Below are positions 2,379 to 60,748 of a DNA stretch of 64,000 bases, piece by piece. The stretch lies in the NCBI GenBank assembly GCA_964631725.1, contig CAZVYX010000016.1, forward strand, positions 36,773 through 100,772, in the 5' to 3' direction. This DNA comes from an uncultured Rhodospirillaceae bacterium (GTDB lineage Bacteria; Pseudomonadota; Alphaproteobacteria; GCA-2731375). How positions within the stretch are numbered: the first letter of the stretch is position 1; each line of letters begins with the position of its first letter. The notes below the pieces were generated by a model, which did not search any database, was not told the origin of the DNA, and worked only from the letters and a program-made list of their open reading frames with translations. A program made the position numbers and the translations under genes.

Positions 2379-2390
2379 GTGCCCTTCGAT

Positions 2391-34482: not shown

Positions 34483-35237
34483 CCGTCGGGCCGCAGAATG
34501 TGGCGGTGATCGGCGGCATAGAGCCGGCTGTCGGTGGCCTGGTCCGTATCCAGCACGCGCCCGACCAGCACCAGGGCCGTGCGGGTCAGCTTGGCGGCCC
34601 GGGTCTTTTCGCGGATATCGGCCAGGGTGCCGCGGATGATCTCCTGGTCAGGCCAACTGGCGCGGTAGACCAGGGCCACGGGACAGTCTTCGCCATAATG
34701 GGGGATCAGGTCGCGGCAAACCTGGCGCAGGTTCCGCGCCGACAGATGGATCGCCAGGGTGGCCCCGGAACGGCCCAGCTCAGCCAATTCCTCCCCCGCC
34801 GGCATGGCGGAGCTTTTCATCGCCGTGCGGGTCAGGATGATCGTCTGGCTGATATCCGGCAGGGTCAACTCCAGCCCCAGGGCGGCGGCGGAGGCGGCGA
34901 AGGCCGGCACGCCGGGCGTAATTGTGTAGTCGATATCAAGGGTTTTCAGCCGCTTGATCTGTTCGCCAATGGCGCCATACAGCGACGGATCGCCGGAATG
35001 CACCCGGGCGACGTCCTGGCCCCGTTCATGGGCGGCTTCGATTTCCGCCATGATCTCGTCCAGATTCAGGGGTGCGGTGTCGATGACACGTGCGCTCTCC
35101 GGCGCGAAGGCCACGACCTCCGCCGGCACCAGCGATCCGGCATAAAGGCAGACCGGACAGGCGGCGATCAGGTCGCGGCCGCGCAGGGTGATCAGGTCCG
35201 GCGCGCCGGGCCCCGCGCCGATGAAGTGGACGGTCAT
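34479..35237 (-). CDS. cobM: Precorrin-4/cobalt-precorrin-4 C11-methyltransferase
   Basis: Tetrapyrrole methylase fold ([18 protein letters not shown]) with CobM/CbiF-specific motifs. Confidence 0.85.
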
Positions 35238-35239
35238 TC

Positions 35240-37048
35240 TTAGGCTTCCTTCGTCAAAGCAGTTTGCTTGGCGGCATAGCCGCGCGGCGTATAGATCGAC
35301 CAGCTGCCGTCGCCGCGCATGCGGGCCCGGGTCTCGGACGATCCGATCATCACCAGGGTCAGCATATCCACGTCATCCACTTGCAAATCAACCAGGGGCA
35401 ATGCGCTCACCTGCTCGCCCTCCCGGCCCAGATTGCGGGCCAGAATAACCGGTGTATCCTCGGGCCGGTGGCGCAGCAGAATATCCCGCGCCAGAACCAG
35501 CAGATCGCGCCGCCGTTTGCTGACCGGGTTATAGAAGGCAATCACGAAATCGGCCGCCGCCGCGGCCACCACCCGGCGCAGAATAACCTCGCGCGGGGTC
35601 AGCAGATCCGAGAGCGAGATGGCGCAGAAATCATGTCCCAACGGCGCGCCGGCCTTCAAAGCCGCTGCCTGCATGGCGGAGATACCGGGCAGCAATTCCA
35701 GCGATATGCGGTCCCAATGCGCCGGCGTGTCTTCACGGTCCAGCAATTCGTGAGCCAGGGCGCCCATGGCGAAAACCCCGGCATCGCCCGATGAGACGAG
35801 GGCAACATTTTCACCCGATGCCGCCATTTCGATCGCGGCGGCAACCCGCGCTTCTTCCTCGCCCAGCTCGTAGGCACGGCAGTCCTTGTCAGGGACAAGA
35901 TCGGCGATCAGTTCCAGATACAGACCATAACCGACGATGATATCGGCCTGGCGCAGGGCGGCCTCCGCCGCGCCGGTGCGCCAATCCGCCCGGCCCGGCC
36001 CGATACCGACAATGGCCAGATGGCCCCGCGGCGACCCCAATGCCGTTGTGTCGATAATGTCATTGGCCCGCGCAATGGCGCAGGTGGCGCGCTGGGCCTT
36101 GCGTTTCTCCACGATCAACTCACCGCTACCGGAACCCATGGCCGCCAGGGCCGCCGCCTCGGACACGCCGCTGACGCCGACCTCCCGCTTGACAACTTCC
36201 GAAGGGTTGGCGAGACGGGCTTCCTGTGCTTGCAGCGCCGCCAGATTGAAAAACCGCGCGGGGATATCAAAATGCGCGGCGGCGGCGTGAATGGCCGCTT
36301 CATCCGTCTTCAAATCCAGTGAAAAGATGCCGGCAAGGGACAGGGGTGACAGCTTCGCCACCGCAAGGGTTTCCGTGATCAACTGGATCAGTTCGTCCGC
36401 CTCCACGCGCCGCTCGCAACCAACGCCCAGGGCCAGATTCTGCCGGTGATAAACCAGATGCTGGTCGCTGCCGTCGGTTGGCGTATCGGTGATGGTGATG
36501 TGCAGGGCGCCGTCATCGGCCAGGGGCAGATCACCGGCGCGCAGCCAATCGGCCTCGCCTTCGATCTTCACCGTGGCACCCGCGCGCAGCTCGGCGACAA
36601 AGGTCTTCATGTCTGACGGATTGGCCAGACGCCAGCCCTGCGGCGGTTCATCCAAGGTGACGGCGTAGGCGGTATCGCTGGCCGTGGTGATGGCCGGCGT
36701 GATTTCCAGGATTTCGCCGACGCGCCGGGCCAGATCATTGGCGCCGTGATGGCCGCCCAGCAAGGGCACGACGGCGCCGCCGTCCTCCGCCAGGGCCAGA
36801 ACCGGTGCATCGTCATGCTTGCTGCCCAGCACCGGGGCCAAATGGCGAATGACGATGCCGGCGGCGCACAGGGCGATCAACGGCTGGCCGGCGGCAAAAC
36901 AATCCCGCAAGGCGGCGGCGACGTCGTCGAACGGCCGGACATCCGTTGCCTCCACCCGCTTGCCATAGCCGTGGATGACGCCGCCCAATACCGCCTGCAC
37001 GCGGCGGGCGGTGGTCAGGCCGGCCTCACTTAGGACCAGATATTTCAT
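35240..37048 (-). CDS. cbiGH: Fused CbiG (cobalt-precorrin-5A hydrolase) / CbiH-CobJ (precorrin-3B C17-methyltransferase)
   Basis: N-terminal ~330 aa CbiG-like. C-terminal tetrapyrrole methylase domain ([16 protein letters not shown]...). Confidence 0.8.
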
Positions 37049-37746
37049 AGGCCCACGCCCTCCTTGCGCACCAGAATCATGGCGAAATAGGGCACTTGGT
37101 CGGGATTGACGTCCGAAAGCTTTTGCACCTGCTGCTCGGGCATGGTGGCGTGAGCCACATAGTGCGCCTGATCCAGCAAATTCAATTCCCGCAGCACGCC
37201 GTAGACCTTCGGCGCATGACGGCCCAGTTTGATGATCGCCGCCGCGTCAGTCTGCAAAAGGCGGGCACACAAATCCTCCGCCGCCATGGGTGCCGGCAGG
37301 ATGCTCAGAACCTCGTTGCGCGCCACCAGGGGCGTCTGCGCGGCGCCGGCACAGGCCATCAGCGAGGATATGCCGGGCACCACCTGTACCGGGAAGTCAT
37401 CGGCCAGGCGATTGAAGAGATACATGAAGCTGCCATAAAAGAACGGATCGCCCTCGCATATCACGGCGACATCCTGTCCGCTGCGTAAGACGGCGGCGAT
37501 TTCCGCCGCGCCCTTGTCGTAGGCGGTGCGGTCGGGGAAACGGTTCGGATCCAGGGGCATGCGGATGATGATTTCCCGCCGGCCTTCCGGTATGTGCGGT
37601 GCGGCGATGCGGCGGGCCAGACTGTCGCCCACTTCAGGCGCCGGATAGGCAATAGCATCCACGGTCTGCAGGATTTTGTGCGCCTTCAGGGTGATCAGAT
37701 CGGGATCGCCGGGGCCAACGCCGAGGCCATAAAGGGTCGCCGTCAT
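37045..37746 (-). CDS. cobI: Precorrin-2/cobalt-precorrin-2 C20-methyltransferase
   Basis: MTATLYGLGVGPGDPDLITLKA methylase N-terminus. ATGA overlap with the cobL stop. Confidence 0.8.
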   Translation of the reverse strand: MTATLYGLGVGPGDPDLITLKAHKILQTVDAIAYPAPEVGDSLARRIAAPHIPEGRREIIIRMPLDPNRFPDRTAYDKGAAEIAAVLRSGQDVAVICEGDPFFYGSFMYLFNRLADDFPVQVVPGISSLMACAGAAQTPLVARNEVLSILPAPMAAEDLCARLLQTDAAAIIKLGRHAPKVYGVLRELNLLDQAHYVAHATMPEQQVQKLSDVNPDQVPYFAMILVRKEGVGL

Positions 37747-38957
37747 GATTTCACGCCCCGGTACTGCGTGACCGGGCGCATGGCGCGCCAGGCATGCAGA
37801 TCGCCCATGCCGTCCATATGGGAAACCGCGATCCGAGTCATCCCGCCGCCGTTGGTCCTCATAAACCTGAACAGTTCGCTCTCTCCTTCGACACTGACCG
37901 CATTGGCGACCAGGCGCCCGCCCTTGGGCAGAGCCCGCCAGCAGGCCTGCAGCAGCTTGCGGTTGCCGGCGCCGCCGCCGACGAAAATTACGTCCGGCTT
38001 GGCCAGACCCTTCAAGGCGGTGGGGGCGGCGCCTTCGACGATCGCCAGATTCTGTACGCCCAGGTTTTGACCATTGGCGCGGATAAATCCTGCTCGTATG
38101 GCATTCTGTTCTATGGCGATGGCCCGTGCGGTGGGTTCGGCGCGCAGGAATTCGATGGCGATGGAGCCGGCACCGGCGCCGACATCCCACAACACATCCC
38201 CCGGGGCGGGCGCCAGGGCGGCCAGGGTGACGGCGCGGACCTCTCGCTTGGTCAATTGACCGTCATGCTGGAACATCTCGTCGGGCAGGCCTGCCGGCCG
38301 CATCAGGCGGGGTGCGTCCGGGTCGGCAATACAATGCAGCGCGATGGTGTTCAAATCGCCGGCCTTGCGCCGCCAGGTCTTGGCCGTGCCGTCGTGGCGC
38401 TTCTCCCGCGGCCCACCCATGTTTTCGAATACGGTCATGGCACTGCCGCCATAGCCGGCTGCCCGCAAGGCGGCGGCGACCTCGCGGGGCGTATTGCCGT
38501 CTCCGCTCAAGATCAGGATCCGTGCGTTGGGCCGCAGGTGCCGGTTCAAAAGGCCCGCGGGGCGGCCATGCAGGGTCATGCCGTCGACCTGGGCCAAGGG
38601 CCAGCCAAGCCGGGCGCAGGCCAGGGAAAAGGCCGATTGGTGCGGGATCACCAGACAGTTTTCGGCGCCGTATTCCCGGCATAAGGTGATGCCGATGCCA
38701 TAAGACATGGGATCGCCGGTGGCCAGCACGCAGACCTGTTGGCCCTTGTATGCCGCCAGCTTGCCCACTGTTTCATGCAGCGCGCCATTCCATGTCAGAC
38801 GGGCGCGCTGGTCATCGCCCAGCATGGCCAGATGCCTCTCGCCGCCGACCAGGATTTCGGCCCCGTCGATGGCGGCGCGGGCGGCTTCGCCAAGTCCGGC
38901 CAGGCCATCTTCGCCAATGCCGATGATGGAAAGCCATTTTGTCATGCCGGCACTCAT
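37743..38957 (-). CDS. cobL: Precorrin-6Y C5,15-methyltransferase (decarboxylating), fused CbiE/CbiT
   Basis: N-terminal methylase domain (LSIIGIGEDG) plus a C-terminal SAM-MTase domain (VLWDVGAGAGSIAIE). Confidence 0.85.
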   Translation of the reverse strand: MSAGMTKWLSIIGIGEDGLAGLGEAARAAIDGAEILVGGERHLAMLGDDQRARLTWNGALHETVGKLAAYKGQQVCVLATGDPMSYGIGITLCREYGAENCLVIPHQSAFSLACARLGWPLAQVDGMTLHGRPAGLLNRHLRPNARILILSGDGNTPREVAAALRAAGYGGSAMTVFENMGGPREKRHDGTAKTWRRKAGDLNTIALHCIADPDAPRLMRPAGLPDEMFQHDGQLTKREVRAVTLAALAPAPGDVLWDVGAGAGSIAIEFLRAEPTARAIAIEQNAIRAGFIRANGQNLGVQNLAIVEGAAPTALKGLAKPDVIFVGGGAGNRKLLQACWRALPKGGRLVANAVSVEGESELFRFMRTNGGGMTRIAVSHMDGMGDLHAWRAMRPVTQYRGVKS

Positions 38958-39595
38958 ACGGGCGTCCGGGCCAGGGCGTTGACGGCGGCGGCGGCGATGG
39001 CGCTGCCGCCCCGGCGGCCGCGAAGGGTCAGATAGGGGATGTTCCCGGCATTGTCGATCAGGGCCTGTTTCGATTCCGCCGCGCCGACGAAGCCGACGGG
39101 AAAGCCCAGAATGACGGCGGGTTTCGGCGCGTCATCGGCCAGCATTTCCAGCAGGCGAAACAGCGCCGTTGGGGCATTGCCGATACAGATCACCGCGCCT
39201 TCCATGTCTTCGCGCCATTTCTCCACTGCAACGGCGGAGCGGGTTTCGCCGCGCGCCTTGGCGGTCTTTTCGACGCCAAAGGTATTCAGGGTGCAGACGA
39301 TCTGGTTCCCCGCCGGCAACAGCCGGTCGATGATGCCGTGGCGCACCATCATGACATCCACCAGGATCGCCGCGCCCCGGCGCAACGCCGCGCTTCCCGC
39401 CGCCACCGGATCACCGCCCCAGGCCAGATCGGCGGGCAGATCGGTCATGCCGCAGGCGTGGATCAGGCGCACGGCGACATCGTGCAGATCCTCCGGCAGG
39501 GCGGAGAAATCCGCTTCCGCCCTGACGATGGCGAAGGATCTGTCGTAGATCGCCTGGGGATCGCGCAGGTAATCGTATGGCGCCTGGGTGCCCAT
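38954..39595 (-). CDS. cobH: Precorrin-8X methylmutase
   Basis: CobH/CbiC family, ~210 aa. Confidence 0.85.
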   Translation of the reverse strand: MGTQAPYDYLRDPQAIYDRSFAIVRAEADFSALPEDLHDVAVRLIHACGMTDLPADLAWGGDPVAAGSAALRRGAAILVDVMMVRHGIIDRLLPAGNQIVCTLNTFGVEKTAKARGETRSAVAVEKWREDMEGAVICIGNAPTALFRLLEMLADDAPKPAVILGFPVGFVGAAESKQALIDNAGNIPYLTLRGRRGGSAIAAAAVNALARTPV

Positions 39596-39602
39596 GTCCG
39601 AC

Positions 39603-40676
39603 CTATTTCTTCACCATGCTGCGCGGGCCCAGGGGATGATCGGCGTGGGGATAGGGGTGGTGGGCGTGATCGTGGCCGCCATCGTGATCATGGTCATGGT
39701 CATGGGAATGGCCGTGATCGTGATCGTGCGCGGGGTCATGGCCCTGATCGTGTCCATGATGGACATGCGCCGTGGGGTCGAAATCCTCGTCCGAGATCTT
39801 GCCCGTGCCGATGCCTTCCACGTGATGGTGGTGACTTTCCTGGGGCAGGCCGACTTCGACCTCGAAGCCCAGCACCTGTTCCCGGTATTTGCAATTCAGG
39901 CAGTTCATGTTGTTGGCGCCTTCCAAGGCCTCGTTGACCCGGTCGGCGAACGCATCCAGCACCAAGGGGTGGTCATTCAGGTACGAGGCCTTGACGAATT
40001 CGATCTCCGGATGATCGGCCGCGACCACATCGGCGTAATGATAGATGCGTCGGACCAGAATGCCGGTGAACAGAAAATACGGAAAAACGATGATCCGTTT
40101 GTAGCCCAGCTTGGCCGCATGCCGCAGGCCCGGCTCCACCAGGGGGAAGGTAACGCCGGAATAGGCGACCTCGGCCCAGCCGAAGCCCAGGCCTTCCCAC
40201 AACAGGCGGCAGACTTTCGAGATATTCGAGTTGGCGTCGGGATCGGAGGCGCCCCGGCCGACCACCACCAGCAGGGTTTCCTCCGGGCTGATGTGATCGC
40301 CGGCGGCATCCATGGCCTCACGCACCCGGTCGCCGGCGGCGCGGATCAGCTTCATGTCCATGCCCAGATCGCGGCCATAGGTGATGTCCAATTCCGGGTG
40401 CTGGGCGGCATAGGTGTTGATCACCGAGGGCAGGTCGTTCTTCACATGGCCGGCGGCGAACAGCATGCCCGGTATGGCGATGATGCGCTTGTTGCCCCGC
40501 TCCCGCAGGGCATCGAGCCGTTCGCGGATGATCGGCGTGGCGAACTCCAGAAAGCCGCTATCCACGTCATATTGCGGCAGGCGGGCGCGGATACCGTCCG
40601 CGACGCTTTGAAATTCTGTAACGGCGTCTTCGTCGCGGCTGCCATGGCCGCAGACCATAATGCCAATATTTGTCAT
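39603..40676 (-). CDS. cbiX: Sirohydrochlorin cobaltochelatase CbiX (long form) with a His-rich C-terminal tail
   Basis: Duplicated CbiX domain (IMVCGHGSRD..., LLVVVGRGASDPDAN). Tail: HHHHVEG...HVHHGHDQGHDPAHDHDHGHSHDHDHDHDGGHDHAHH. Confidence 0.8.
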   Translation of the reverse strand: MTNIGIMVCGHGSRDEDAVTEFQSVADGIRARLPQYDVDSGFLEFATPIIRERLDALRERGNKRIIAIPGMLFAAGHVKNDLPSVINTYAAQHPELDITYGRDLGMDMKLIRAAGDRVREAMDAAGDHISPEETLLVVVGRGASDPDANSNISKVCRLLWEGLGFGWAEVAYSGVTFPLVEPGLRHAAKLGYKRIIVFPYFLFTGILVRRIYHYADVVAADHPEIEFVKASYLNDHPLVLDAFADRVNEALEGANNMNCLNCKYREQVLGFEVEVGLPQESHHHHVEGIGTGKISDEDFDPTAHVHHGHDQGHDPAHDHDHGHSHDHDHDHDGGHDHAHHPYPHADHPLGPRSMVKK

Positions 40677-40768
40677 GATTGCCTCATCCACTCTCGATAC
40701 GCCACGCTTGCTCTCGTTAAGGTAATGCGGCAAACCTGCTGGCTTCGCGGCTTAGCATAGCAGTTTGC

Positions 40769-41722
40769 ATGTTTGAATTTGTTTTTCCCATACAGGCGGT
40801 ATTTCTCGCCCTGGCGCTGGATCTGCTGTTCGGCGAGCCCAAGTGGCTCTACGACCGGGTCGCACATCCCGTTGTCTGGATCGGAAAGCTGATTTCCGCC
40901 CTTGAGGGCCGCCTGTACGGCCCGCAAAACCAGATATTTCAGGGTGCGGTTCTGGTCGCCGTCACGGTCGTTCTGTGCGCGGCCGCCGGCGCTGTTATTT
41001 CGTGGTTGGCGGAACAAACCGGTCTCGACTGGATCCTGACCGGTATCGTCGGCTCGGTGTTTCTTGCGGCCCGCAGCCTGTATGACCATGTGGTCACGGT
41101 GGCGCGGGGTCTGTCCCGGGACCTGGAAGCGGGGCGCGCGGCGGTCAGCCATATCGTTGGCCGGGATGTTTCGGAATTGGACGAGGCCGGCGTCGCCCGC
41201 GCGGCCTTGGAAAGCCTGGCCGAGAATTTTTCCGACGGCGTGGTGGCACCGCTGTTCTGGTTCCTTGTCGCCGGTTTGCCGGGGCTGCTGGCCTACAAGG
41301 CGGTCAATACCCTGGACAGCATGCTCGGCCACCGTAACGAACGCTATCTGTATTTTGGCCGGGTGGCGGCGCGCCTGGACGATGTGGTGAACTGGCCGGC
41401 GGCGCGGATCACCGGTGCCTTGCTGTGTTTCGGCGCGCTGGTGGCGCCCGGCCTGGACGCGGGCAAGGCCTGGCGCACCATGTGGCGGGATGGGGGCAAG
41501 CACATATCGCCCAATGCCGGCTGGCCCGAGGCCGCCATGGCGGGCGCCCTGGGCATCGCCCTGGCCGGACCACGGATCTATGACGGCGCGCGCACCGATG
41601 ATCCTTGGCTCGGCGATGGCGACGGCATGGTGACGGCGGCGGACATTGCGCGGGGCTGCACCTTGTACCGCTGGACCTGCGCCGCGATCCTGCTGGCCCT
41701 GTTGGTGCTCGCCTTGCCCTAG
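40769..41722 (+). CDS. cobD: Adenosylcobinamide-phosphate synthase
   Basis: CobD/CbiB membrane protein family. Confidence 0.85.
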   Translation: MFEFVFPIQAVFLALALDLLFGEPKWLYDRVAHPVVWIGKLISALEGRLYGPQNQIFQGAVLVAVTVVLCAAAGAVISWLAEQTGLDWILTGIVGSVFLAARSLYDHVVTVARGLSRDLEAGRAAVSHIVGRDVSELDEAGVARAALESLAENFSDGVVAPLFWFLVAGLPGLLAYKAVNTLDSMLGHRNERYLYFGRVAARLDDVVNWPAARITGALLCFGALVAPGLDAGKAWRTMWRDGGKHISPNAGWPEAAMAGALGIALAGPRIYDGARTDDPWLGDGDGMVTAADIARGCTLYRWTCAAILLALLVLALP

Positions 41723-41735
41723 TTCAGGCAGCAGT

Positions 41736-43199
41736 TCAGGCCGCATGGGCGATCTCCAACATGCGGTCCAGATCCAGGTTTTCCTCCAGATGCGCGGCCA
41801 GGCCATCAAGGGTCTGGTCAACCAGGGCATCATGATTGACGCCGCTTTGTTGCCGCGCCCGCAGCTTTGACAGATAGGCATGGCGGAAAGCGTCGGCCCG
41901 CATCAGGCCGTGCAGATAGCAGCCCTCGACCCGGCCATCGGCGCTGCGCGCGCCGTCCGTTCCGCCATCGAGTTCAAGGAACGGCCGGGCCTGGTCCGGT
42001 CCGCTCGTGAGACCGAGGTGGATTTCATAACCGTGCAGGGCTTCGCCGCTTTCAATATGAATGCCGGCGCGTTTGCCCAAGCTCTTTTCCGGCGACAGCA
42101 CGGTTTCCATGTCCAATAGACCCAGGCCGTCCGCCCGCGAGATCGGGCCCTCAATGCCTTCGGGATCGGCGATGGTTTTGCCCAATATTTGATAGCCGCC
42201 GCAAATGCCCAGGATATACCCGCCGCGCCGGTGATGGGCCAGGATGTCAATGTCCCAGCCCTGGCGGCGGAGAAAGGCGAGATCGGCGATGGTGGCCTTG
42301 CTTCCGGGCAGCAGGATCAGGTCCGCATCGCCCGGGACTACCTCGCCCGCCGCAACGATCCGCACCTCCACATCCGGTTCGGCATTCAGGGGATCCAGAT
42401 CGTCGAAATTGGCGATGCGGGAAAGCTTCGGCACGGCTATTTTAATGGCGCCGTCACGGCGCGCGGCCGGCTTATCCAGGGCGACGGCGTCTTCCGCCGG
42501 CAGATGCACGGCATCTGGAAAATACGGCGCGATGCCCATGGCGGGCCAGCCGGTGCGGTTGGTGATTTCCGTCAGGCCATCGTCGAACAGGGTCACGTCG
42601 CCACGGAATTTGTTGATGATATAGCCCTTGATGCGCGTCCTGGCGTCGTCATCAATTACCGCATGGGTGCCGACAACGGCGGCGATGACGCCGCCCCGGT
42701 CGATATCCGCCACCAGGATTACCGGTACGTTTGCGGCGGCGGCAAAACCCATGTTGGCGATGTCCCGGCCCGGCAGATTGATCTCCGCCGGGCTGCCCGC
42801 CCCTTCGACCAGGACCAGATCGGCGCCGGATGAATTAATCTCGTAGCTCTCCAATACCTCGGCCATCAAGCCGGCTTTCAGGTGCTGATAGTCCCGCGCA
42901 TTGGCGGCGCCGCGAACCTGGCCGCGCACGATGATCTGTGCGCCGATGTCGGTCTGTGGTTTCAACAGCACTGGGTTCATATGCACACTGGGTTCGGCCC
43001 GGGCGGCGAGCGCCTGCAAATGCTGGGCCCGGCCGATCTCACCGCCGTTGCCGGCGATGGCGGCGTTATTGGACATGTTCTGCGGCTTGAAGGGCCGTAC
43101 CTCTAGGCCCCGGTTGGCATAGGCGCGCGCCAAGCCGGCCACCATGAGCGATTTGCCCACGTCGGATCCGGTGCCTTGGAACATCAGCGCCCTTGCCAT
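41736..43199 (-). CDS. cobQ: Cobyric acid synthase
   Basis: CobQ/CbiP: N-terminal GTGSDVGKS and a C-terminal GATase domain. Confidence 0.9.
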
Positions 43200-43209
43200 C
43201 GTCCGCGGC

Positions 43210-43830
43210 CTAAAACTCGATGCCCTTCTGGGCCTTAACGCCGGAGCGGAAAGGGTGCTTTACCTGGGTCATTTCGGTGACCAGATCGGCGATTTCGATC
43301 AATTCGTCCTTGGCGTTGCGCCCCGTAACGATGACGTGCAGGTCTTCCGGTTTGTTCGACAGGGTCTCGATGATTTCATCCAGGGGCAGGTTGTCGTAGC
43401 GCAGGACGATGTTGAGTTCGTCCAGCAGAATCATGTCGAATTCCGGGTTCGGCCCACGCGACGCTTCGATCATCTCCTTGGATTTATCCCAGGCCTTGCG
43501 CGCGGCGGCGATATCGCGGGCCTTGTCCTGGGTTTCCCAGCTAAAACCTTCGCCCATGGCATGGATTTCGATCTGGTCGGGGAAATGTTCCAGGATATCC
43601 CGCTCCCCGGTTTCCCATTTGCCTTTCACGAACTGGATCACACCGACCCGCATGCCGTTGCCCATGGCGCGCACGACCAGGCCAAATGCGGCGGTTGATT
43701 TACCCTTGCCCTTGCCGGTGTGCACGATCACCAAGCCTTTTTCGATGGTCTTGGTGGCCAGCATTTTTTCCCGGGCGCGCTTTTTGTTAGCGGCCTTTTC
43801 GTTGGCGCGGGCGTATTGGTCGTCACTCAT
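43210..43830 (-). CDS. cobO: Cob(I)yrinic acid a,c-diamide adenosyltransferase
   Basis: CobO/BtuR family ([15 protein letters not shown]). Confidence 0.9.
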
Positions 43831-46800
43831 CCTTGTTCTCCCATGCTCATGCTTTCATTGGCCGCGATCAGATCGCGCAGGGCGTCCGGGGTGGAGTTGG
43901 AAAGGGTCTGCCACAGGCCGCGCTCCAGCGCCTCGGTCAGCCGCTCCGCCATTTCCTTCAGTGCCGCCGGATTGTTTTGACGCAAAAAGTCCAGAACTTC
44001 GTCGTCATTCAGGTACGCTTCGTAGACTGCGTCGAAATGATGGTCCGAGACGACCCGCGCCGTGGCGGCAAAGGCGAACAGGTAATCCACCGTCGCCGCC
44101 ATCTCGAAGGCGCCCTTGTAGCCGTGGCGCATGACGCCGGAAATCCACTTCGGATTGACCACGCGGGCCCGCACGACGCGGCCGATCTCGTCTTCCAGGC
44201 TGCGGATCTTCGGTGCGAAGGGCCGGCTGTGATCATTGTGATAGATGGCGGGCTGGGCGCCTGAATAGTGCCGCACGGCTGCCGTCAAGCCGCCTTCGAA
44301 CTGGTAGTAGTCGTCTGAATCCAGCAGGTCGTGCTCTCGATTGTCCTGGTTTTGTACCACGCCCTGGGTGCTGGACAGGAGGGACTGGAACTGGCCGTGT
44401 GCCGGCCGGCCGGACTTCTTGCCGCCATAGGCATAGCCGCCCCAGGCCAGATAGGCGCGGGCCAGATCGCCGTCGTCCCGCCAGCCACGCTCGTCCATCA
44501 GGGCCTGCAAACCAGCGCCGTAGGCGCCGGGTTTGGAACCGAATACGCGGGCGGCGGCCAGATGGTCCGCGTCTGATGCGTCATGGCCCGCCTGGCGTAA
44601 ACGATGGGCATCGGCACGGGCCCGCGCCGCCAGGGGGTTGTCCCGCTCGGCCTCGTCCAGGGCGGCGACCTCCCGGGCGGCACTGTCGAACAGATCGATC
44701 TGGGTCGGAAAGGCATCGCGGAAAAAGCCGGAAATACGCAAGGTCACATCGACCCGGGGCCGGTCCAGCATATGGATGGGCAGGATGTCGAAGCCGATGA
44801 CCCGGCGCGATGCGGGCTCCCACTTCGGCTGTACGCCCATCAGCGCCAGGGCCTGGGCGATATCATCGCCGCCGGTGCGCATGTTGGCGGTGCCCCAGGC
44901 GCTGATCGCCAGATGTTTCGGCCATTCGCCATGGCTTTGCCGGTATTCATCCAGCAACAGGTTGGCGGATTTCCAGCCCAACTGCCAGGCGGCCGGAGTG
45001 GGTACGGTGCGGCTGTCCACGGAATAGAAATTCCGCCCCGTGGGCAGAACGTCCAGGCGCCCCCGCGTCGGCGCGCCGGACGGTCCCGGTTCGACGAATT
45101 TGCCATCCAGACCCTGGATCAGGGCGGAGATTTCGGCCTCACCGCAGGCATCCACGGTGGGGCCTACATGCCCGGCAATATTGTCCAGCACGGCCCGGGT
45201 CGCCGTCCAGTCCGGCGCTATCGTTGCCGTGCCATCGACCAGGCCGGCGGCCAGTTCCTCCAACCGTTCCACGGTGTCGCCATGGCTGCGCCAGGCTGCG
45301 TCACCCATTCGCAACGGCGCCGGCTTTGGTCCGTGCCAAGTATCTCCCAGGGTGCAATCCAGCGGATCGAAGGCAAGTTCAAGATCCTCGGCCAGGGCTC
45401 GGATCAGGGAGGCATCGCCCGGATTGTCAGCTTCATCGCCCTGGCGCGGCAGACGGGTCAGGGCCACCAACAGATCCCGGCGCAAGCGGCCCTCCAATGG
45501 CTGGCCCAGAACATGCAGGCCGTCGCGGATCTGCATTTCCTTCAGGTCGCACAGGTAATTGTCCAGTTTGGCCAGGGCGGCGGCCTCGTCATCCCCGGCG
45601 TCGATGCCTGCGTCCTTGTCCAGGCCGATATCGCGCGTCAGTTCCAAAATCTGCCCGCGCAAAAGATTAAGGCGGCGCGGATCCAGGCCGGCGGCTTCAT
45701 AGAATTCATCCACCAGCAGTTCCAGCTCCGCCAGGGGGCCGTAGCTTTCCGCCCGCGTTAATGGCGGCGTCAAATGATCGACGATTACCGCCTGGGCCCG
45801 CCGCTTGGCCTGCGTGCCTTCGCCGGGATCATTGACGATGAAGGGATAAAGATGGGGCAGGGGACCCAAGGCGGCTTCCGGATAGCAATTTTCGGAGAGC
45901 GCCAGGGACTTACCCGGCAGCCATTCCAGATTGCCGTGCTTGCCCATATGGATCATGGCCTGGACGCCAAAGCTCCGGCGCAGCCAGGCGTAAAAGGCCA
46001 GATATCCGTGCGGCGGCACCAGGTCCGGGTCGTGGTAGGTCGACTTGGGGTCGATGTTGTAGCCCCGTGCTGGTTGCAGGCCGATCACCACCTTGCCCTG
46101 GATGAAGGCGGGCAAGATGAAGGCATCGCCATCCACGAAGGGATCGTCCCCGGCCGGCCCCCAGCGCTCATTGACTTGTGTCTGTATTGTCTCGGGCAGA
46201 TTGTTGAAGAAATCTTGATAGTCGGCGACGGCGAACTTGATGCCCCCCGCGCGGCCGGCCCGGTTCGTCAGATTGTTGGTCGGTCCGGCGGCGAGTTTTC
46301 TGATCAGATCATCGCCCCGGCCCGGCAGGCTGCCCACGTCATAATCCGCATCCGCCAAGGCGCGCAGCAGGTTCAAGGCGGAGGCAGGCGAGTCCAGACC
46401 GACGCCGTTGCCCATGCGGCCATCCTTGTTGGGGTAGTTGGCGAAAATTAGTGCCAGGCGCCGCTTGGGCGCGGGCGTCTGCGTCAGCGCCAACCAATTG
46501 GCGGCCAGGCGGCAGACAAAATCGATCCGGTCCGGCACCCCTTGGTAGGCGATCACCGGCAACTGCGTGGCTTCGTCAAAACGCGCCTCGGCCTTGAACG
46601 ATACGGCGCGGGAGATGATCCGGCCGTCGACTTCGGGCAAGGCCACGTTCATGGCGATGTCACGGGCGCTCAAGCCGTTCAAATTTTCGCGCCAGTCCTC
46701 TTCGTTGCCGCCGGCGAAGATCATCTGAATAACCGGCACGCCGGGCCGTTCCAGGGGTGAATCCGCCCGCGCGCCGCTGGGTTTGGAAATGGCGAAGCCG

Positions 46801-47591
46801 GTGGCGTTGAGGATCACGCCGGGCGGTTCCTCGGCAAAGATCGCATTCACGGTTTCCGCCGAGACCGCTTCCTTCAGGGAGGCGACAAAGACCGGCAGCG
46901 GGTTCAGGCCGTGATCGCGCAAGGACCGGATCACGCCGTCCACCGGGTCCAGATTGCCCGCCTGATACAGGGCCCGATAGAAGGTGACGGCGGCCACTGC
47001 CGCGCCCGGCGTCCAATGCCGCCGCAGCTCCGCCAGGGTTACGGCGCCCTGGCCGGGCCAATAGATGCCGGCGCGCAGCAACGGCGCGGGCTCCCGCCAA
47101 TCAACCGGTTGGCCCAATAGGCTGGCGGCATAGGCCAGTAGATTGCCGCCGTTTTCCAGGCCGCCATGGACGAAATACTGCCACAGACGGTGGCAAGCCT
47201 CGGCCGGCAGGGTCGATAGGCCATGCAGTTCGGCATCGGGCTGATCATCGCCCGGGATGATGGCCAGGGCGATATCTGACTGGCGGCAGCAGTCCACCAC
47301 CTGTTCCACGCCATAGGGCCAGTAGTTGACGCCGCCCAGCAACCGGATGACCACCAGTTTAGCCGCCCTGACAATGTCGCCGACGTATAGATCGACCGAC
47401 ATGTTGTGGCTTAGGTTCATCAGGTTCGCCAGGCGCAGGCTGGGCGCATCCGAATTCCGCCCCGCCGCCGACAGCATCTGCAAGTCCGTATCCGCCGCCG
47501 ACAGGATAACGATGTCGCCGGGGCTTTGGCCCAGGTCCACCGCCTCCGCTCCATCGGAGATGCCGCCGGGTTTGGCTGCGAGCAGATGCAT
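43827..47591 (-). CDS. cobN: Cobaltochelatase large subunit CobN
   Basis: ~1250 aa CobN/Mg-chelatase H family protein embedded in the cob operon. Confidence 0.85.
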   Translation of the reverse strand: MHLLAAKPGGISDGAEAVDLGQSPGDIVILSAADTDLQMLSAAGRNSDAPSLRLANLMNLSHNMSVDLYVGDIVRAAKLVVIRLLGGVNYWPYGVEQVVDCCRQSDIALAIIPGDDQPDAELHGLSTLPAEACHRLWQYFVHGGLENGGNLLAYAASLLGQPVDWREPAPLLRAGIYWPGQGAVTLAELRRHWTPGAAVAAVTFYRALYQAGNLDPVDGVIRSLRDHGLNPLPVFVASLKEAVSAETVNAIFAEEPPGVILNATGFAISKPSGARADSPLERPGVPVIQMIFAGGNEEDWRENLNGLSARDIAMNVALPEVDGRIISRAVSFKAEARFDEATQLPVIAYQGVPDRIDFVCRLAANWLALTQTPAPKRRLALIFANYPNKDGRMGNGVGLDSPASALNLLRALADADYDVGSLPGRGDDLIRKLAAGPTNNLTNRAGRAGGIKFAVADYQDFFNNLPETIQTQVNERWGPAGDDPFVDGDAFILPAFIQGKVVIGLQPARGYNIDPKSTYHDPDLVPPHGYLAFYAWLRRSFGVQAMIHMGKHGNLEWLPGKSLALSENCYPEAALGPLPHLYPFIVNDPGEGTQAKRRAQAVIVDHLTPPLTRAESYGPLAELELLVDEFYEAAGLDPRRLNLLRGQILELTRDIGLDKDAGIDAGDDEAAALAKLDNYLCDLKEMQIRDGLHVLGQPLEGRLRRDLLVALTRLPRQGDEADNPGDASLIRALAEDLELAFDPLDCTLGDTWHGPKPAPLRMGDAAWRSHGDTVERLEELAAGLVDGTATIAPDWTATRAVLDNIAGHVGPTVDACGEAEISALIQGLDGKFVEPGPSGAPTRGRLDVLPTGRNFYSVDSRTVPTPAAWQLGWKSANLLLDEYRQSHGEWPKHLAISAWGTANMRTGGDDIAQALALMGVQPKWEPASRRVIGFDILPIHMLDRPRVDVTLRISGFFRDAFPTQIDLFDSAAREVAALDEAERDNPLAARARADAHRLRQAGHDASDADHLAAARVFGSKPGAYGAGLQALMDERGWRDDGDLARAYLAWGGYAYGGKKSGRPAHGQFQSLLSSTQGVVQNQDNREHDLLDSDDYYQFEGGLTAAVRHYSGAQPAIYHNDHSRPFAPKIRSLEDEIGRVVRARVVNPKWISGVMRHGYKGAFEMAATVDYLFAFAATARVVSDHHFDAVYEAYLNDDEVLDFLRQNNPAALKEMAERLTEALERGLWQTLSNSTPDALRDLIAANESMSMGEQG

Positions 47592-47598
47592 CCCTGGT

Positions 47599-48642
47599 TC
47601 AGTCCAGGATCATCGCGCGGATGGCGGCTTCGTCCAGGCCATGCAGGCCGATCACCACCAGGCGGCTGGCGCGGTCTTCGTCCGTGCCCCAATCCCGGTC
47701 ATAATAGTGCTGATAACGGTCGCCGACACCCTGTACCAGCAGGCGCATATCCTTGCCCTTGACGGCGATGAAGCCTTTCATGCGCAGCACGTCATGGGCC
47801 GCCGCTGCCTGCCGCAGTTTCGCCACCAGGGCTTCGGGATCGGCCACCGCATCGAAGGCCACGACGAAGCTTTCAAAGTCATCGTGTTCGTGGTCGTCTT
47901 CGTCATCGTGATGGGAGGGACGGTTGTCTAAATCGTCCTCGGCGGCGGCGTCCAGGCCCAGCAAGGTATCGGCATCAATGGCGCCGTGGCGGGCCGGCAC
48001 CACCCGTATCGATTGCCGTAGGGCGGCCCGCAAATCCGCCGTGACGCGGGGTGCTTCCTCTTCCGATATCAGGTCGGCCTTGTTCATCACCACCATATCG
48101 GCGCAGGCCAGTTGATCCGTGAACAGTTCCGCCAGCGGGCTGTCATGATCCAGCGCCTCGTCGGCCTGCCGTTGCGCCATGACCGCGTCCGGGTCATCGG
48201 CGAACAGGCCGGCGGCGAATGCCGGTGCATCGACTACGGTAACCACGCCATCGACGGTGATGCGGGTGCGGATGCCTGGCCAGTTGAAGGCCTTCAGCAG
48301 CGGTTTCGGCAAGGCCAGGCCGGACGTCTCGATAATGATGTGGTCAATGCCCCCGGGCCGGTCCAGCAACGCCTCCATGGTGGGCACGAAATCGTCGGCC
48401 ACGGTGCAACAAATGCAGCCATTGGCCAGTTCGACAATGTCTTCTTCGGCACAATTCTCGGCACCGCAGGCCTTTAGGATATTGCCGTCGACGCCGACGT
48501 CGCCGAATTCGTTGATAATCAGCGCCAGGCGCCTGCCGTTGGCGGTTTGCAAAAGGTGCCGGATCATGGAGGTTTTGCCCGCGCCCAGGAAGCCGGTGAT
48601 GACGGTGGCGGGAATACGTTGCAGATTGCTCATGAACGGCAT
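47599..48642 (-). CDS. cobW: Cobalamin biosynthesis GTPase CobW (COG0523)
   Basis: GFLGAGKT P-loop, CICC motif (GCICCTV), His/Asp-rich stretch HHDDEDDHEHDD. Confidence 0.85.
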   Translation of the reverse strand: MPFMSNLQRIPATVITGFLGAGKTSMIRHLLQTANGRRLALIINEFGDVGVDGNILKACGAENCAEEDIVELANGCICCTVADDFVPTMEALLDRPGGIDHIIIETSGLALPKPLLKAFNWPGIRTRITVDGVVTVVDAPAFAAGLFADDPDAVMAQRQADEALDHDSPLAELFTDQLACADMVVMNKADLISEEEAPRVTADLRAALRQSIRVVPARHGAIDADTLLGLDAAAEDDLDNRPSHHDDEDDHEHDDFESFVVAFDAVADPEALVAKLRQAAAAHDVLRMKGFIAVKGKDMRLLVQGVGDRYQHYYDRDWGTDEDRASRLVVIGLHGLDEAAIRAMILD

Positions 48643-48764
48643 GATCCTAGCTGGTGATAAAGGCGGGAATGTCCGGAATGATTCATGACCTTGCGTCCTC
48701 CCTCCGAGGATCTGTTACTTGGTTTCAACAGGCCGCGCGCGTCTTCTGGCTTAGGATCATCGGT

Positions 48765-48930
48765 TGCGGGACCTTCCCGGCGGCAGCACCGCCAGTGGCA
48801 TTTTCCCGTTTCCTCACCATTCACAGTTGCGGGGGCAGCGCCGGATTTTACGTCCCGAACTGACAGGGACGAAACACCGGCTTCCGCGCCACGGCTGGCG
48901 CAAACTAGCACGCATGACAGGCCCCGGCAA
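48765..48930 (-). ncRNA. Cobalamin (AdoCbl) riboswitch in the 5' leader of the cobW-cobN-cobO-cobQ operon
   Basis: The minus-strand sequence reads ...GCGCGGAAGCCGGTGTTTCGTCCCTGTCAGTTCGGGACGTAAAATCCGGCGCTGCCCCCGCAACTGTGAATGGTGAGGAAACGGGAAAATGCCACTGGCGGTGCTGCCGCCGGGAAGG... It contains the GAAGCCGGTG, AAAATCC, CCCCGCAACTGT, B12-box GCCACTG and GGGAAGG consensus elements in the canonical order. Confidence 0.75.
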
Positions 48931-49014
48931 TCGGCTAGCCGAATTGCCGCTGGCAATGTCTGTCGTGCCAGCGTAAAGCTAGGGGCAACATTGTTAAGCG
49001 TTTTGGATTTCCGA

Positions 49015-58814: not shown

Positions 58815-59219
58815 CGGCGGTTCTACAAGCCTTTGTCAAGCAGTGCCTTGATCTTCGCCTTGCTCGTCTGCGCGATCAGCCGTCCCGCTTCCCCGCTGCT
58901 TTTCACCATCACCAAGGTGGATTGATAGGTTACCTTGTACTGCGTGGCGATGGCGGCATCCCCGTAGGTGTCCCAGTCCACATAGACGAAGGTGATCTTC
59001 TCGTCATAGCTCTTGTTGGCGGCCCGTAATGCCTTGATCGCACGGATCTGGCTGCGACAGGTGCCTCACCACTCGGCGGCGAATTCCAGCAATACCGCAC
59101 GGCCATCGTCGAGGGCGGATTTCACGGCCTTGGGGCTATAGGGCACGCTGTCGCCAGCGGCATGTGCCGCCAACGGCACCGACAAGGCAGCGACAACGGC
59201 AAACTGTAGAAAACGTCTA
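58815..59219 (-). CDS. Periplasmic thioredoxin-like protein with an in-frame TGA at the first active-site Cys position (candidate selenoprotein, UxxC)
   Basis: The minus-strand ORF encodes MLRRRFLQFAVVAALSVPLAAHA (signal) ...AVLLEFAAEW-[TGA 59060..59058]-GTCRSQIRAIK...VYVDWDT...LVMVKSSGEAG..., 134 codons to TAG. It aligns with the thioredoxin motif DFWAEWCGPCK, and the reading frame and fold conservation continue through the TGA. A 6-bp-stem hairpin (GUCGCA/UGCGAU) starts ~10 nt 3' of the UGA. It lies directly downstream of ccdA. Confidence 0.5.
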
Positions 59220-59246
59220 CGTAACATCAAATCACCTTCAACATGT

Positions 59247-59960
59247 TCAGATCGAAACCGATAGGTCCTGCAGCCATTCGGGGAGAATGTCCAACAGCTG
59301 GCTTTCCAGCCAATGGTCTACCCCGAACAGAATGCCCATGCCCACCAACAAAAACGTGATCCCCAGGATCGTCTTGGCTTTGCCCGCAAGCAGGCGCAGG
59401 GCCCGTTGCCGCTTCGCCACCATTTCGCGGGTTCCAAAGGCCAGCGCCAGCACAACAGTGGACACTCCCAACGCAAACGCTGTCATGATTGCTCCGGCCC
59501 AAATGATATCCTGGCCCTGGGAGGCCAGGGATATGGCACCGCCCAGGGTTGGCCCGATACAAGGCGACCAGACGGCCCCCAACATGGCCCCGCCCAGGAA
59601 CTGCCCACGCAGCCCGGCGCTGTCCATGCCGCGTAGATGGCCATCGGCATTGCCGGCGAAAGCGGCCGTGGCTGTGGCGAAGCGTTCGTTCAGGCGCGGG
59701 ACCAACAGGACCAGGCCAAAGACGACCATCATCCAGGCGCCGATCGTGGTCATCAGCCGCTGATCAAGGCCGATCGAGGATCCCAGCACGATGACGAACA
59801 GGCCAACCAGGACGAAAGACAGGCTCAACCCAGCCGCCAACGCCAGCGGGCCCCGGCGGTCGGCCTGCAGCGAGGCCGCCAGAACGATGGGCAATACGGG
59901 CAATACGCAGGGGTTCAGCAGCGTCAGCAACCCGGCGATGAAAGCGAAAAACAACTCCAC
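59247..59960 (-). CDS. ccdA: Cytochrome c biogenesis / thiol-disulfide electron transporter CcdA (DsbD family)
   Basis: Six TMs with the two conserved Cys (LLNPCVLPVLP and WSPCIGPTLG). Confidence 0.8.
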   Translation of the reverse strand: MELFFAFIAGLLTLLNPCVLPVLPIVLAASLQADRRGPLALAAGLSLSFVLVGLFVIVLGSSIGLDQRLMTTIGAWMMVVFGLVLLVPRLNERFATATAAFAGNADGHLRGMDSAGLRGQFLGGAMLGAVWSPCIGPTLGGAISLASQGQDIIWAGAIMTAFALGVSTVVLALAFGTREMVAKRQRALRLLAGKAKTILGITFLLVGMGILFGVDHWLESQLLDILPEWLQDLSVSI

Positions 59961-60103
59961 GAAGCGAACACTCCATGATCGGGAACTCCAGGGTCGGCGC
60001 TCGATATCATGGATCTCGCATATGGGACAACACGGTCATTGGTCACGTTGCCGTGTGCCGCATGCCGTTGCACGGATGGCGGCCGCGCGACTACAATCAG
60101 GTC

Positions 60104-60748
60104 ATGTCCCCGCCCGACCGCCAACTCGCCGCCATCGTGATCGCCGATGTGGCCGGCTATACGCAAATGATCGATGCGGACGAGGCCGGCAGTCATGAAC
60201 GCTTCGGCGACCTGACGGAGAATATTTTCAAACCCTTGCTAAAACAGCACAACGGCCGCCTGGTCGAGACCAAGGGCGATGCCCTTTTGTCGACCTTTAC
60301 CTCGGCCGTGGCGGCGGTGAACTTCGCGGTCGATGTGCAACGGACCCTGCCAATTCATCAGGGCGACTGGCCGAATGGCCAGCGCATGCGGTTTCGCCTG
60401 GGCATCGGTCTGGGTGAAATCATTATCGAAGGTGACGATGTCCATGGCGACGGCGTCAGGGTGGCGAACCGGTTGCGCGAATTGACGGATCCGGGCGAAA
60501 TCTTGATTGCGGGTAGCGTCCTCGACCAGGTGCGCCGGCGCCTCGACCATGTGGCGTTCGAAGACATGGGGCCCGGGGAGGTGGAAGACATGCCCGATCC
60601 GGTGCCGGCCTATCGCGTGCTGCTGGATCCATCGGTGATCGAAGAGGAGGCCGATGGCGGAAAAGTTTTCACCGGACGCCGGATCGCCCTGGCCTTGCTG
60701 GTCCTGGTGCTGTTTGCGGGCGCGGCGCTGTGGAAGCTGCGGGGATGA
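60104..60748 (+). CDS. Class III adenylate/guanylate cyclase with a C-terminal TM anchor
   Basis: CHD domain motifs (AIVIADVAGYT, ETKGDALL, RFRLGIGLGEIII) and a C-terminal hydrophobic segment. Confidence 0.7.
   Translation: MSPPDRQLAAIVIADVAGYTQMIDADEAGSHERFGDLTENIFKPLLKQHNGRLVETKGDALLSTFTSAVAAVNFAVDVQRTLPIHQGDWPNGQRMRFRLGIGLGEIIIEGDDVHGDGVRVANRLRELTDPGEILIAGSVLDQVRRRLDHVAFEDMGPGEVEDMPDPVPAYRVLLDPSVIEEEADGGKVFTGRRIALALLVLVLFAGAALWKLRG

Follow-up and report, generated by a model that had tools for sequence, protein, structure and literature searches.

A thioredoxin-like gene with an in-frame TGA lies downstream of ccdA

The 64-kb window analyzed here (the whole stretch of DNA, 64,000 nucleotides from an uncultured Rhodospirillaceae bacterium) contains a candidate selenoprotein gene. 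This gene, trx, is on the minus strand downstream of ccdA, and a single in-frame TGA codon interrupts it at 59068..59066, as read with a sequence ruler and from the end of the open reading frame (ORF). The frame runs from ATG 59227 to TAG 58825..58823, which amounts to 134 codons including a selenocysteine (Sec) codon at position 54, and TTG 59230 is an alternative in-frame start on the same strand. Read-through translation gives ...LLEFAAEW--GTCRSQ... (GRAVLLEFAAEW--GTCRSQIRAIKALRAANKSYDEKITFVYVDWDTY...KALLDKGL).

An initial annotation of the window had described a minus-strand gene after ccdA with a signal peptide, a thioredoxin fold, and a TGA in place of its first catalytic Cys. The gene and its fold were borne out by matches to PF00085 and, for ccdA, PF02683; the signal peptide was judged by inspection. 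The TGA is also present, but its coordinates had been given as 59060..59058, which is wrong by 8 nt and is essentially the TGT codon of the second active-site Cys (59059..59057). The 80 codons of thioredoxin-like sequence that had been described between the TGA and the TAG are all there in the translation. The features of the locus are as follows.

58823..59227, minus strand: trx selenoprotein coding sequence ("TrxU"), supported by its translation, a Pfam Thioredoxin match, Cys homologues, a Sec orthologue (locus L001), and the ratio of nonsynonymous to synonymous divergence (dN/dS)
59159..59227, minus strand: predicted signal peptide MLRRRFLQFAVVAALSVPLAAHA with an A-H-A cleavage motif, from inspection of the translation
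59066..59068, minus strand: putative Sec-encoding UGA, residue 54, aligned with the N-terminal nucleophilic Cys in the WCxTC motif of homologues
59057..59068, minus strand: active-site motif U-G-T-C (UxxC), preceded by an invariant Trp at 59071..59069
59023..59061, minus strand: extended stem-loop of the candidate Sec insertion sequence (SECIS), made up of basal and middle helices and an apical hairpin, from its minimum free energy (MFE) fold, pairing, and low divergence
59036..59048, minus strand: apical SECIS hairpin, GAUC (59048..59045) paired with GAUC (59039..59036) around the loop CGUGC (59044..59040), conserved and covarying
59232..59238, minus strand: Shine-Dalgarno-like AAGGTGA, 4 nt 5' of the trx ATG, read directly from the sequence
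59247..59960, minus strand: ccdA, encoding a 237-amino-acid membrane thiol-disulfide electron transporter, from Pfam and from the same 237-amino-acid call in four independent assemblies

The ccdA product matches DsbD_TM (PF02683; E = 2e-12) and DsbD_2 (PF13386; E = 4.9e-9), and it has the two conserved CcdA cysteines, in LNPC and WSPC. The gene terminates at a TGA that acts as a normal stop. Therefore, the genetic code is not reassigned, because UGA is an ordinary stop codon in ccdA itself. Since only 19 nt separate the ccdA stop from the trx ATG on the same strand, the two genes probably form one operon. A promoter and terminator scan between ccdA and trx found no signal above chance.

The TGA and the reading frame beyond it are conserved

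Full-length Cys homologues with WCGTC or WCITC were found at 43 to 52% identity, and the TGA aligns with their first Cys. The same alignment holds for the WC[GSTI]TC motifs of P0001 to P0003 and of 21 genomic orthologues. On approximately 20 public contigs, trx is mis-annotated as two unnamed fragments of 53 and 52 amino acids. Taken together, these two "fragments" match full-length Cys-form thioredoxins from one end to the other.

A scan of species-representative genomes found 22 orthologous loci. In 21 of them, from Rhodobacterales, Rhizobiales, and a Granulosicoccaceae metagenome-assembled genome (MAG), the gene is a Cys form (WC[SGT]TC). The remaining one, in an Arabian Sea Alphaproteobacteria MAG (L001), has 81% protein identity to the window protein and the identical TGA (EFAAEW*GTCRSQ). 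Comparison of orthologues, which the initial annotation had proposed, thus produced a Sec/Cys pair at the catalytic position. The locus with its TGA is also present in four contigs that were assembled independently and come from different samples, and the gene is identical in all of them (no mismatches). The initial annotation had raised the possibility of a sequencing artefact, and an unchanged TGA in four independent assemblies and in L001 answers it. The TGA is not an error.

We also searched metagenomes with a Sec-only DNA pattern (TGG-TGA-NNN-ACN-TGY, 69 to 81 nt, GTN-GAY-TGG-GAY), which had no matches in 100 shuffles of the window. It retrieved 103 metagenomic stretches, about 63 of which hold true family members, each with a signal peptide, WU[GSPT]TC, and approximately 80 conserved in-frame codons. 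There are 56 distinct Sec-form sequences when the window and L001 are counted, with 37 to 87% identity to the window protein. One Sec locus (L085; AACY02...) is a Global Ocean Sampling (GOS) contig. In the window's own clade (clade A of the three Sec-form clades described below), codons +17 to +80 past the TGA have a dN/dS of 0.11 to 0.25 by the Nei-Gojobori method, comparable to the part upstream. This purifying selection argues that the codons past the TGA are translated.

Decaying copies of the gene look different. Two family members, L104 (around 2875, minus strand) and L175 (around 1479, minus strand), were compared with L141. Both have a conserved Arg codon changed from CGA to TGA 14 codons past the Sec codon, together with Y-to-H and L-to-R changes at invariant sites. 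These lesions are absent from the window gene. The family varies in other ways as well. An uncultured Rhodobacterales MAG (L007) has three Cys-form paralogues (WCSTC, WCSTC, and WCPTC) in one 12-kb locus. A subclade of clade A (L089, L111, L128, L171, L108, L143, L160, and L183) has a C-terminal extension of 10 to 16 residues ending in ...C-[SAT]-[GST] and, N-terminal to the active site, one more Cys in "KGC[SA]V"; the window protein has neither of these additional Cys residues.

A covarying stem-loop follows the UGA in Sec-form genes

The extended stem-loop is the MFE fold of the 51 nt that start at the UGA (-16.5 kcal/mol, 72% of the ensemble). In its basal helix, CCUGU (59061..59057) pairs with ACGGG (59027..59023); this helix was 76% paired, with two-sided changes at two pairs, and is moderately supported by the comparison. 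The middle helix, GCC (59052..59050) with GGC (59033..59031), is paired in 12 to 16 of 16 clade relatives. The apical hairpin, GAUC-CGUGC-GAUC, was 94% paired, and its four pairs hold in all 16 relatives. Its loop has G-U at 59043..59042, and the spacing from the UGA to the apical loop is 21 nt.

A SECIS-like hairpin soon after the UGA was part of the initial annotation, and one does exist: it is GAUC-CGUGC-GAUC, which is Sec-form specific and covarying. The hairpin that had been drawn, GUCGCA (59058..59053) with UGCGAU (59042..59037), can be formed by the sequence and overlaps the real element, but it is not conserved. It was 73% paired among the 16 clade relatives, the same as in shuffles, and three of its six pairs break in 6 to 10 of them. 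We therefore rejected it as a functional element.

The nucleotide sequence after the UGA is unusually constant between relatives. Between the window and L001, approximately 24 of 90 nt differ upstream of the TGA, whereas none differ in the stretch that begins 5 nt ahead of the TGA and extends 57 nt beyond it. In pairs from clade A, synonymous divergence (pS) is 0.00 to 0.31 in the 16 codons after the UGA versus 0.27 to 0.90 in the flanks. The low synonymous divergence points to constraint at the RNA level.

A stem of at least 4 bp closed by a CGUGN pentaloop is present in 56/56 distinct Sec forms, starting 25, 30, or 43 nt from the U of the UGA. The same search found no such hairpin in any of 24 Cys-form genes. 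When the Sec forms were resampled 500 times with synonymous codons, an average of 4.7 of the 56 sequences (11 at most) had one. Outside clade A, the stem length is 4 to 7 bp. When 44 distinct hairpins were aligned on their loops, C-CGUG-N-G was invariant, the loop G-U at positions 2 and 3 was present in 44/44, and all four apical pairs were formed in every one, three of them with changes on both sides. Examples of compensated stems are AGCGCAC/GUGCGCU, AGCGUGC/GCACGCU, GGCUC/GAGCC, and GAACUC/GAGUUC. Pairing was 81%, compared with 58% in shuffles, and covariation was 0.46, compared with 0.12, a score that none of 500 shuffles reached. Slid registers of the alignment all collapsed. RNAalifold run on each clade separately recovered the CGUGN hairpin independently. 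When all 56 Sec forms were folded together by RNAalifold, no structure emerged, since their hairpins are at three different offsets.

In the published bacterial SECIS (bSECIS) model, the loop is 3 to 9 nt, the upper stem is 4 to 16 bp, the spacing is 16 to 37 nt, and the MFE is -7.5 kcal/mol or lower, with a G within the first two loop positions that is usually followed by G or U (PMC13188914). The window element agrees with this model throughout, having a 5-nt loop, a 4-bp upper stem, G-U at loop positions 2 and 3, 21-nt spacing, and -16.5 kcal/mol. The UGA-to-loop spacing is 26 nt in clade B and 39 nt in clade C, the latter slightly outside the range. In clade C (for example, L081, L084, L098, L117, L122, and L134), where the hairpin starts 43 nt from the U of the UGA, RNAalifold also found another conserved hairpin (+13..+31), which lies between the UGA and the CGUGN hairpin. 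This second hairpin could shorten the effective distance between the UGA and the SECIS. One clade C contig, L134, has a permuted two-piece tmRNA near its Sec gene (5026..5382, minus strand; ARAGORN), which is consistent with an alphaproteobacterial host for that contig.

The three SECIS offsets (+25, +30, and +43) map one-to-one onto the three protein clades of a neighbor-joining (NJ) tree. The Cys forms sampled make up one clade nested among the Sec clades in this tree, for which sampling was biased by the search patterns. The pattern suggests relocation or repeated gain of the SECIS, plus a switch from Sec to Cys in Rhodobacterales.

Elsewhere in the window, a SECIS-signature scan found no second candidate selenoprotein gene, giving only noise outside the family. 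A scan for other TGA-interrupted genes based on GC content at third codon positions (GC3) had no discrimination in this 63% GC sequence.

The product is a predicted exported member of the thioredoxin family

With Cys placed at the stop, the trx protein matches the Pfam Thioredoxin model (PF00085) over residues 36 to 131 (E = 9.4e-12; 45.3 bits versus a cut-off of 23.5). In alignment numbering, W32, C33 (U), T35, and C36 are invariant in a 36-sequence family alignment. A family profile matches many solved thioredoxins, and it aligns W-U-G-T-C with WCGHC and WCPVC of solved structures, the CxxC of 5ZPV included. Equivalog models for canonical TrxA and TrxC scored below their cut-offs (TIGR01068, 45.2 versus 96.8 bits; NF006898, 31.1 versus 138; NF008229, 30.9 versus 125). 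By these scores, the protein belongs to the thioredoxin family but is no orthologue of TrxA or TrxC.

Models of the TlpA/ResA/CcmG type were also below cut-off (Redoxin PF08534, 22.5 versus 26.6; AhpC-TSA PF00578, 16.9 versus 26), as were DsbE (TIGR00385, 17.8 versus 123) and TlpA (NF047696, 23.3 versus 230). None of the selenoprotein-specific NCBIfam models (SaoT, TsoB, HUIPC-motif Trx-like, VPGUxxT, and others listed in PMC13188914) scored above cut-off. The only match to any of them was a partial one to the C-terminal thioredoxin domain of TsoB (25.8 bits versus a cut-off of 805).

Thioredoxins have a cis-proline in an x-P-T-L loop that faces the active site. In the family, a near-invariant S-T-L aligns at this site (by hidden Markov model [HMM] alignment only), where it is matched with P-T-L of TXNDC5 domains and with Q-S-T-L of the Edwardsiella piscicida protein Trxlp. 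Of 69 members, 56 have STL as the triplet, another 9 have S/A-T-x, and in 4 the regular expression had no match. The window protein has Q-S-T-L at about codons 102 to 105, near 58924..58913. Ser, or rarely Ala, at the predicted cis-Pro site would be unusual for a thioredoxin-fold oxidoreductase.

The N terminus, MLRRRFLQFAVVAALSVPLAAHA followed by AG, resembles a cleavable signal peptide by inspection, with a positive n-region, a hydrophobic core, and A-H-A. It contains a twin-arginine-like RR-x-F-L, and so the export route might be Sec or Tat. RR-x-[FLIVMA][LIVFMA] is found in 7/14 clade A members, 16/17 clade B members, and 19/20 Cys forms and in 0/17 members of clade C. The TAT HMMs did not match the window protein, and one clade B member gave the only matches, which were subthreshold. 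The protein has no membrane anchor or lipobox.

Linkage to ccdA and other genes in the window

At most Sec-form loci, the gene next to trx on the same strand is a ccdA homologue, which precedes trx in clades A and C and follows it in clade B. Cys-form loci have the same pairing with ccdA. A linkage that survives a change in gene order suggests functional coupling. No family-wide neighbor besides ccdA was found. A "conserved cyclase neighbor" in 36 loci turned out to be an artefact of clustering antisense shadow ORFs.

In the window, the product of a gene divergent from ccdA (59975..60748, plus strand) has a cyclase homology domain (PF00211, weak match) and a C-terminal transmembrane helix. True homologues of this gene lie beside ccdA-trx in six close relatives only (L001, L090, L123, L133, L128, and L111). 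Therefore, the cyclase-domain gene is a matter of local synteny and is no family-wide partner.

An amidase gene (PF01425; 61865..63117, minus strand) has a 2-nt indel near 62474 that splits it into two overlapping frames. It is intact (416 amino acids) in assemblies L187 and L188, and L186 has a 67-nt insertion at the same spot. The indel reflects local heterogeneity of the assembly or the population and has nothing to do with the trx TGA.

Other genes in the window are more distant. At 252..6194 are genes for two very large, apparently secreted proteins that have faint matches to multihaem cytochromes and LVIVD, followed by a cytochrome c554-like gene (6243..7607, minus strand), a complete type II secretion cluster (about 7.8 to 21.8 kb), and a copper-type P1B ATPase gene (22028..24475, minus strand) beside a MerR regulator. 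From these genes, the organism has many periplasmic c-type cytochromes and metal-handling proteins on which a periplasmic reductase could act. A large cobalamin biosynthesis cluster (approximately 33000..48650) includes cobW, cobN, cobO, cbiA, cobD, cbiX, cbiC, and several TP_methylase genes. Upstream of this cluster is a cobalamin riboswitch (RF00174; 85 bits; 48719..48932, minus strand).

Interpretation and alternative explanations

We propose that trx encodes a UGA-recoded, exported thioredoxin-fold reductase with a U-G-T-C active site, partnered with CcdA, and we put the probability of this proposal at roughly 85%. The UGA is very probably used for Sec in the active site. The proposal is supported by the Sec/Cys pair, the conserved TGA and frame, purifying selection, the Sec-specific covarying SECIS, and adjacency to ccdA. 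The initial annotation had already suggested a Sec-containing exported partner of CcdA, and the comparative evidence favors it.

In the mechanism that we envisage, the UGA at 59068..59066 would be recoded as Sec through SelB and the SECIS, and the ribosome would continue through the remaining 80 codons. The protein would then be exported through its N-terminal signal peptide. In the periplasm, the Sec54 selenolate would attack disulfides or sulfenic acids of target proteins, and Cys57 would resolve the intermediate, leaving a selenylsulfide. CcdA would re-reduce this selenylsulfide with electrons carried across the membrane from cytoplasmic thioredoxin. The UGA-recoding step is strongly supported by the comparative data. 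We infer SelB binding, export, electron flow through CcdA, and the reductase role from known Sec decoding and from CcdA/DsbD biology, and for export and electron flow we draw on the CcdA/DsbD systems described previously (PMC3322552, PMC3914529).

Several observations weigh against this proposal. No selA, selB, selD, or tRNA-Sec was found in the 64-kb window or in the fetched flanks of approximately 100 loci, and so the capacity of the host to make Sec-tRNA is assumed. The window has no tRNA genes, tblastn searches of the window and the loci with E. coli SelA, SelB, and SelD had no matches, and there was no tRNA-Sec in 60 loci. In Alphaproteobacteria, the tRNA-Sec gene selC may lie nested within selB (PMC13188914, ref. 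34). A single SelB-like match, in L161, proved to be LepA. The fold energy of the SECIS region is the same as that of shuffles of this GC-rich sequence (z = -0.78), and Rfam searches at gathering and permissive thresholds matched no SECIS family. In clade A, to which the window belongs, changes in the apical stem are one-sided only, and so the covariation comes mainly from the other two clades. Several family loci with adequate flanks have no ccdA nearby. Finally, the signal peptide, electron transfer from CcdA, and the direction of the reaction are read from sequence and synteny, and the protein-level account as a whole comes from comparative data.

The alternative that survives best, although we consider it unlikely, accepts a true selenoprotein with another role. 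The protein might be an oxidase or isomerase, it might be a secreted effector like Trxlp, or it might use another electron donor, with adjacency to ccdA as mere synteny. The loci without ccdA are compatible with this, as is the fact that the nearest solved relative, Trxlp (5ZF2/5ZPV; E about 2e-19), has been described as a translocated virulence effector (PMC6636751). The usual cis-Pro is also missing, and so the chemistry of the family may be atypical. However, ccdA is next to the gene and on the same strand at most loci, and this linkage has outlasted the change in gene order between clades. The only role known for CcdA is to export reducing equivalents to extracytoplasmic thioredoxin-fold proteins (PMC3322552, PMC3914529), and the hosts are mostly free-living marine or soil bacteria, not pathogens.

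Read-through of the UGA without Sec is highly improbable. A near-cognate tRNA would insert Trp or Cys, and the hairpin would merely stimulate read-through or pausing. The lack of Sec machinery genes in the window and fetched flanks fits this explanation, and Cys is fully functional at the site in 21 orthologues. However, the hairpin has the hallmarks of a SelB element, namely, a small loop, G-U at positions 2 and 3, a stem of at least 4 bp, and 21-nt spacing. C-CGUG-N-G stays invariant even when the hairpin is at different offsets, which points to a sequence-specific trans-acting factor and not to a generic roadblock. UGA at the catalytic Cys of a UxxC motif is a classic selenoprotein signature (PMC1088965, PMC2398784). 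Also, inefficient read-through would be a costly route to Cys, and a single mutation to TGC or TGT would remove the cost.

A genuine stop (in a pseudogene, through an assembly error, or between two small proteins of 53 and 52 amino acids) is scarcely credible, for although gene callers split the locus into two such products on about 20 contigs, at least one indel of assembly or population origin occurs in the window (in the amidase gene), and Sec machinery was not seen in the window or flanks, the TGA is identical in four independent assemblies and kept with an intact frame in 56 distinct sequences at 37 to 87% identity, dN/dS after it is 0.11 to 0.25, the two "fragments" together span full-length Cys-form thioredoxins, and the truly decaying copies (L104 and L175) have extra lesions that the window gene does not.

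Comparison with known systems

We conclude that trx is a genuine, widespread selenoprotein gene that current annotation has missed, and it is one of a well-known kind. Surveys of marine metagenomes have listed UxxC thioredoxin and thioredoxin-like selenoproteins since 2005 and 2008, and the thioredoxin-like ones are among the commonest marine bacterial selenoproteins; the entries include Trx, Trx-like 1 (COG0526, 321 sequences), Trx-like 2, and Trx-like 3 (PMC1088965, PMC2398784). A 2026 review lists extracytoplasmic thioredoxin-fold selenoproteins, including DsbA-like and DsbG-like proteins and a UGC-containing TlpA family (PMC13188914). Therefore, a Sec-containing partner of CcdA is less notable than the initial annotation had claimed, and it overturns nothing in current understanding. 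A link between selenoproteins and CcdA or DsbD did not turn up in full-text literature searches, and neither NCBIfam nor Rfam has a model that captures the trx protein or its SECIS. A family model would correct many metagenome annotations.

The GOS bins of thioredoxin-like selenoproteins resemble the trx family in fold, in having Sec at the first Cys position of CxxC, in their Cys-form homologues, and in marine abundance. They differ in being broad and defined by COG/CDD, and the papers make no mention of a signal peptide, ccdA linkage, or a SECIS of the window type. In cultured strains, the Cys orthologues go by no more specific names than "thioredoxin family protein" or, in IMG, "thiol-disulfide isomerase/thioredoxin," the latter being the COG0526 label. 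The most plausible home of the family is therefore the broad Trx-like 1 bin. The family has the UxxC motif of that bin, and no member was found in the part of the published GOS selenoprotein sequences that was searched.

A bolder idea is that these genes make up a distinct and so far undescribed family, a widespread CcdA-coupled exported selenothioredoxin without cis-proline in which the SECIS has moved between three registers. We regard this as doubtful. If it were true, the family would have Sec as its ancestral or dominant state, a SECIS could change place along an ORF, and the 39-nt spacing of clade C with its intervening hairpin would stretch the accepted spacing rule for SelB decoding.

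Among solved structures, the best single-domain relative of the family profile is Trxlp of Edwardsiella piscicida (ETAE_2186; 5ZF2/5ZPV; E = 1.7e-19; PMC6636751), which has a canonical thioredoxin fold. It shares WCxxC-K/R-x-Q-E-R, the xDxD strand, and Q-S-T-L at the cis-Pro loop with the family. However, Trxlp has Cys rather than Sec (WCPVC, compared with WUGTC in the window protein), it has been described as a host-translocated effector that inhibits ASK1, and no ccdA link has been reported for it (PMC6636751).

Thioredoxin-fold reductases linked to CcdA or DsbD are another known group. They are exported, encoded beside a CcdA/DsbD-type transporter, and kept reduced by that neighbor, and Sec-containing extracytoplasmic members have already been predicted. 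The window protein differs from them in scoring best as a classical PF00085 thioredoxin, in having no anchor or lipobox, in having UxxC rather than UGC, and in having Ser at the predicted cis-Pro site. The Sec-containing thioredoxin of Treponema denticola is also a PF00085 protein with the same placement of Sec in UxxC, and it provides an experimental precedent for a catalytic advantage of Sec (PMC13188914, ref. 84). That thioredoxin is cytoplasmic and is reduced by thioredoxin reductase, whereas the window protein is predicted to be exported and paired with CcdA. Within the trx family, a small putative exported reductase occurs naturally in many Sec/Cys pairs, and its proposed electron donor, CcdA, is genetically linked to it. 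This would make the family a tractable system for asking what Sec gains in an oxidizing periplasm and whether a CcdA-type transporter reduces a selenylsulfide.

The candidate SECIS can be compared with the consensus bSECIS, typified by E. coli fdhF and fdnG (PMC13188914, Fig. 2). Both are stem-loops within the ORF just past the UGA, with a small apical loop, G-U at its positions 2 and 3, an upper stem of 4 bp or more, and a spacing of 21 nt. The family element differs in its invariant C-CGUG-N-G apex and in its three registers (21, 26, and 39 nt) in three clades. Three registers combined with an invariant loop amount to a natural experiment on SECIS placement and SelB recognition in proteobacteria.

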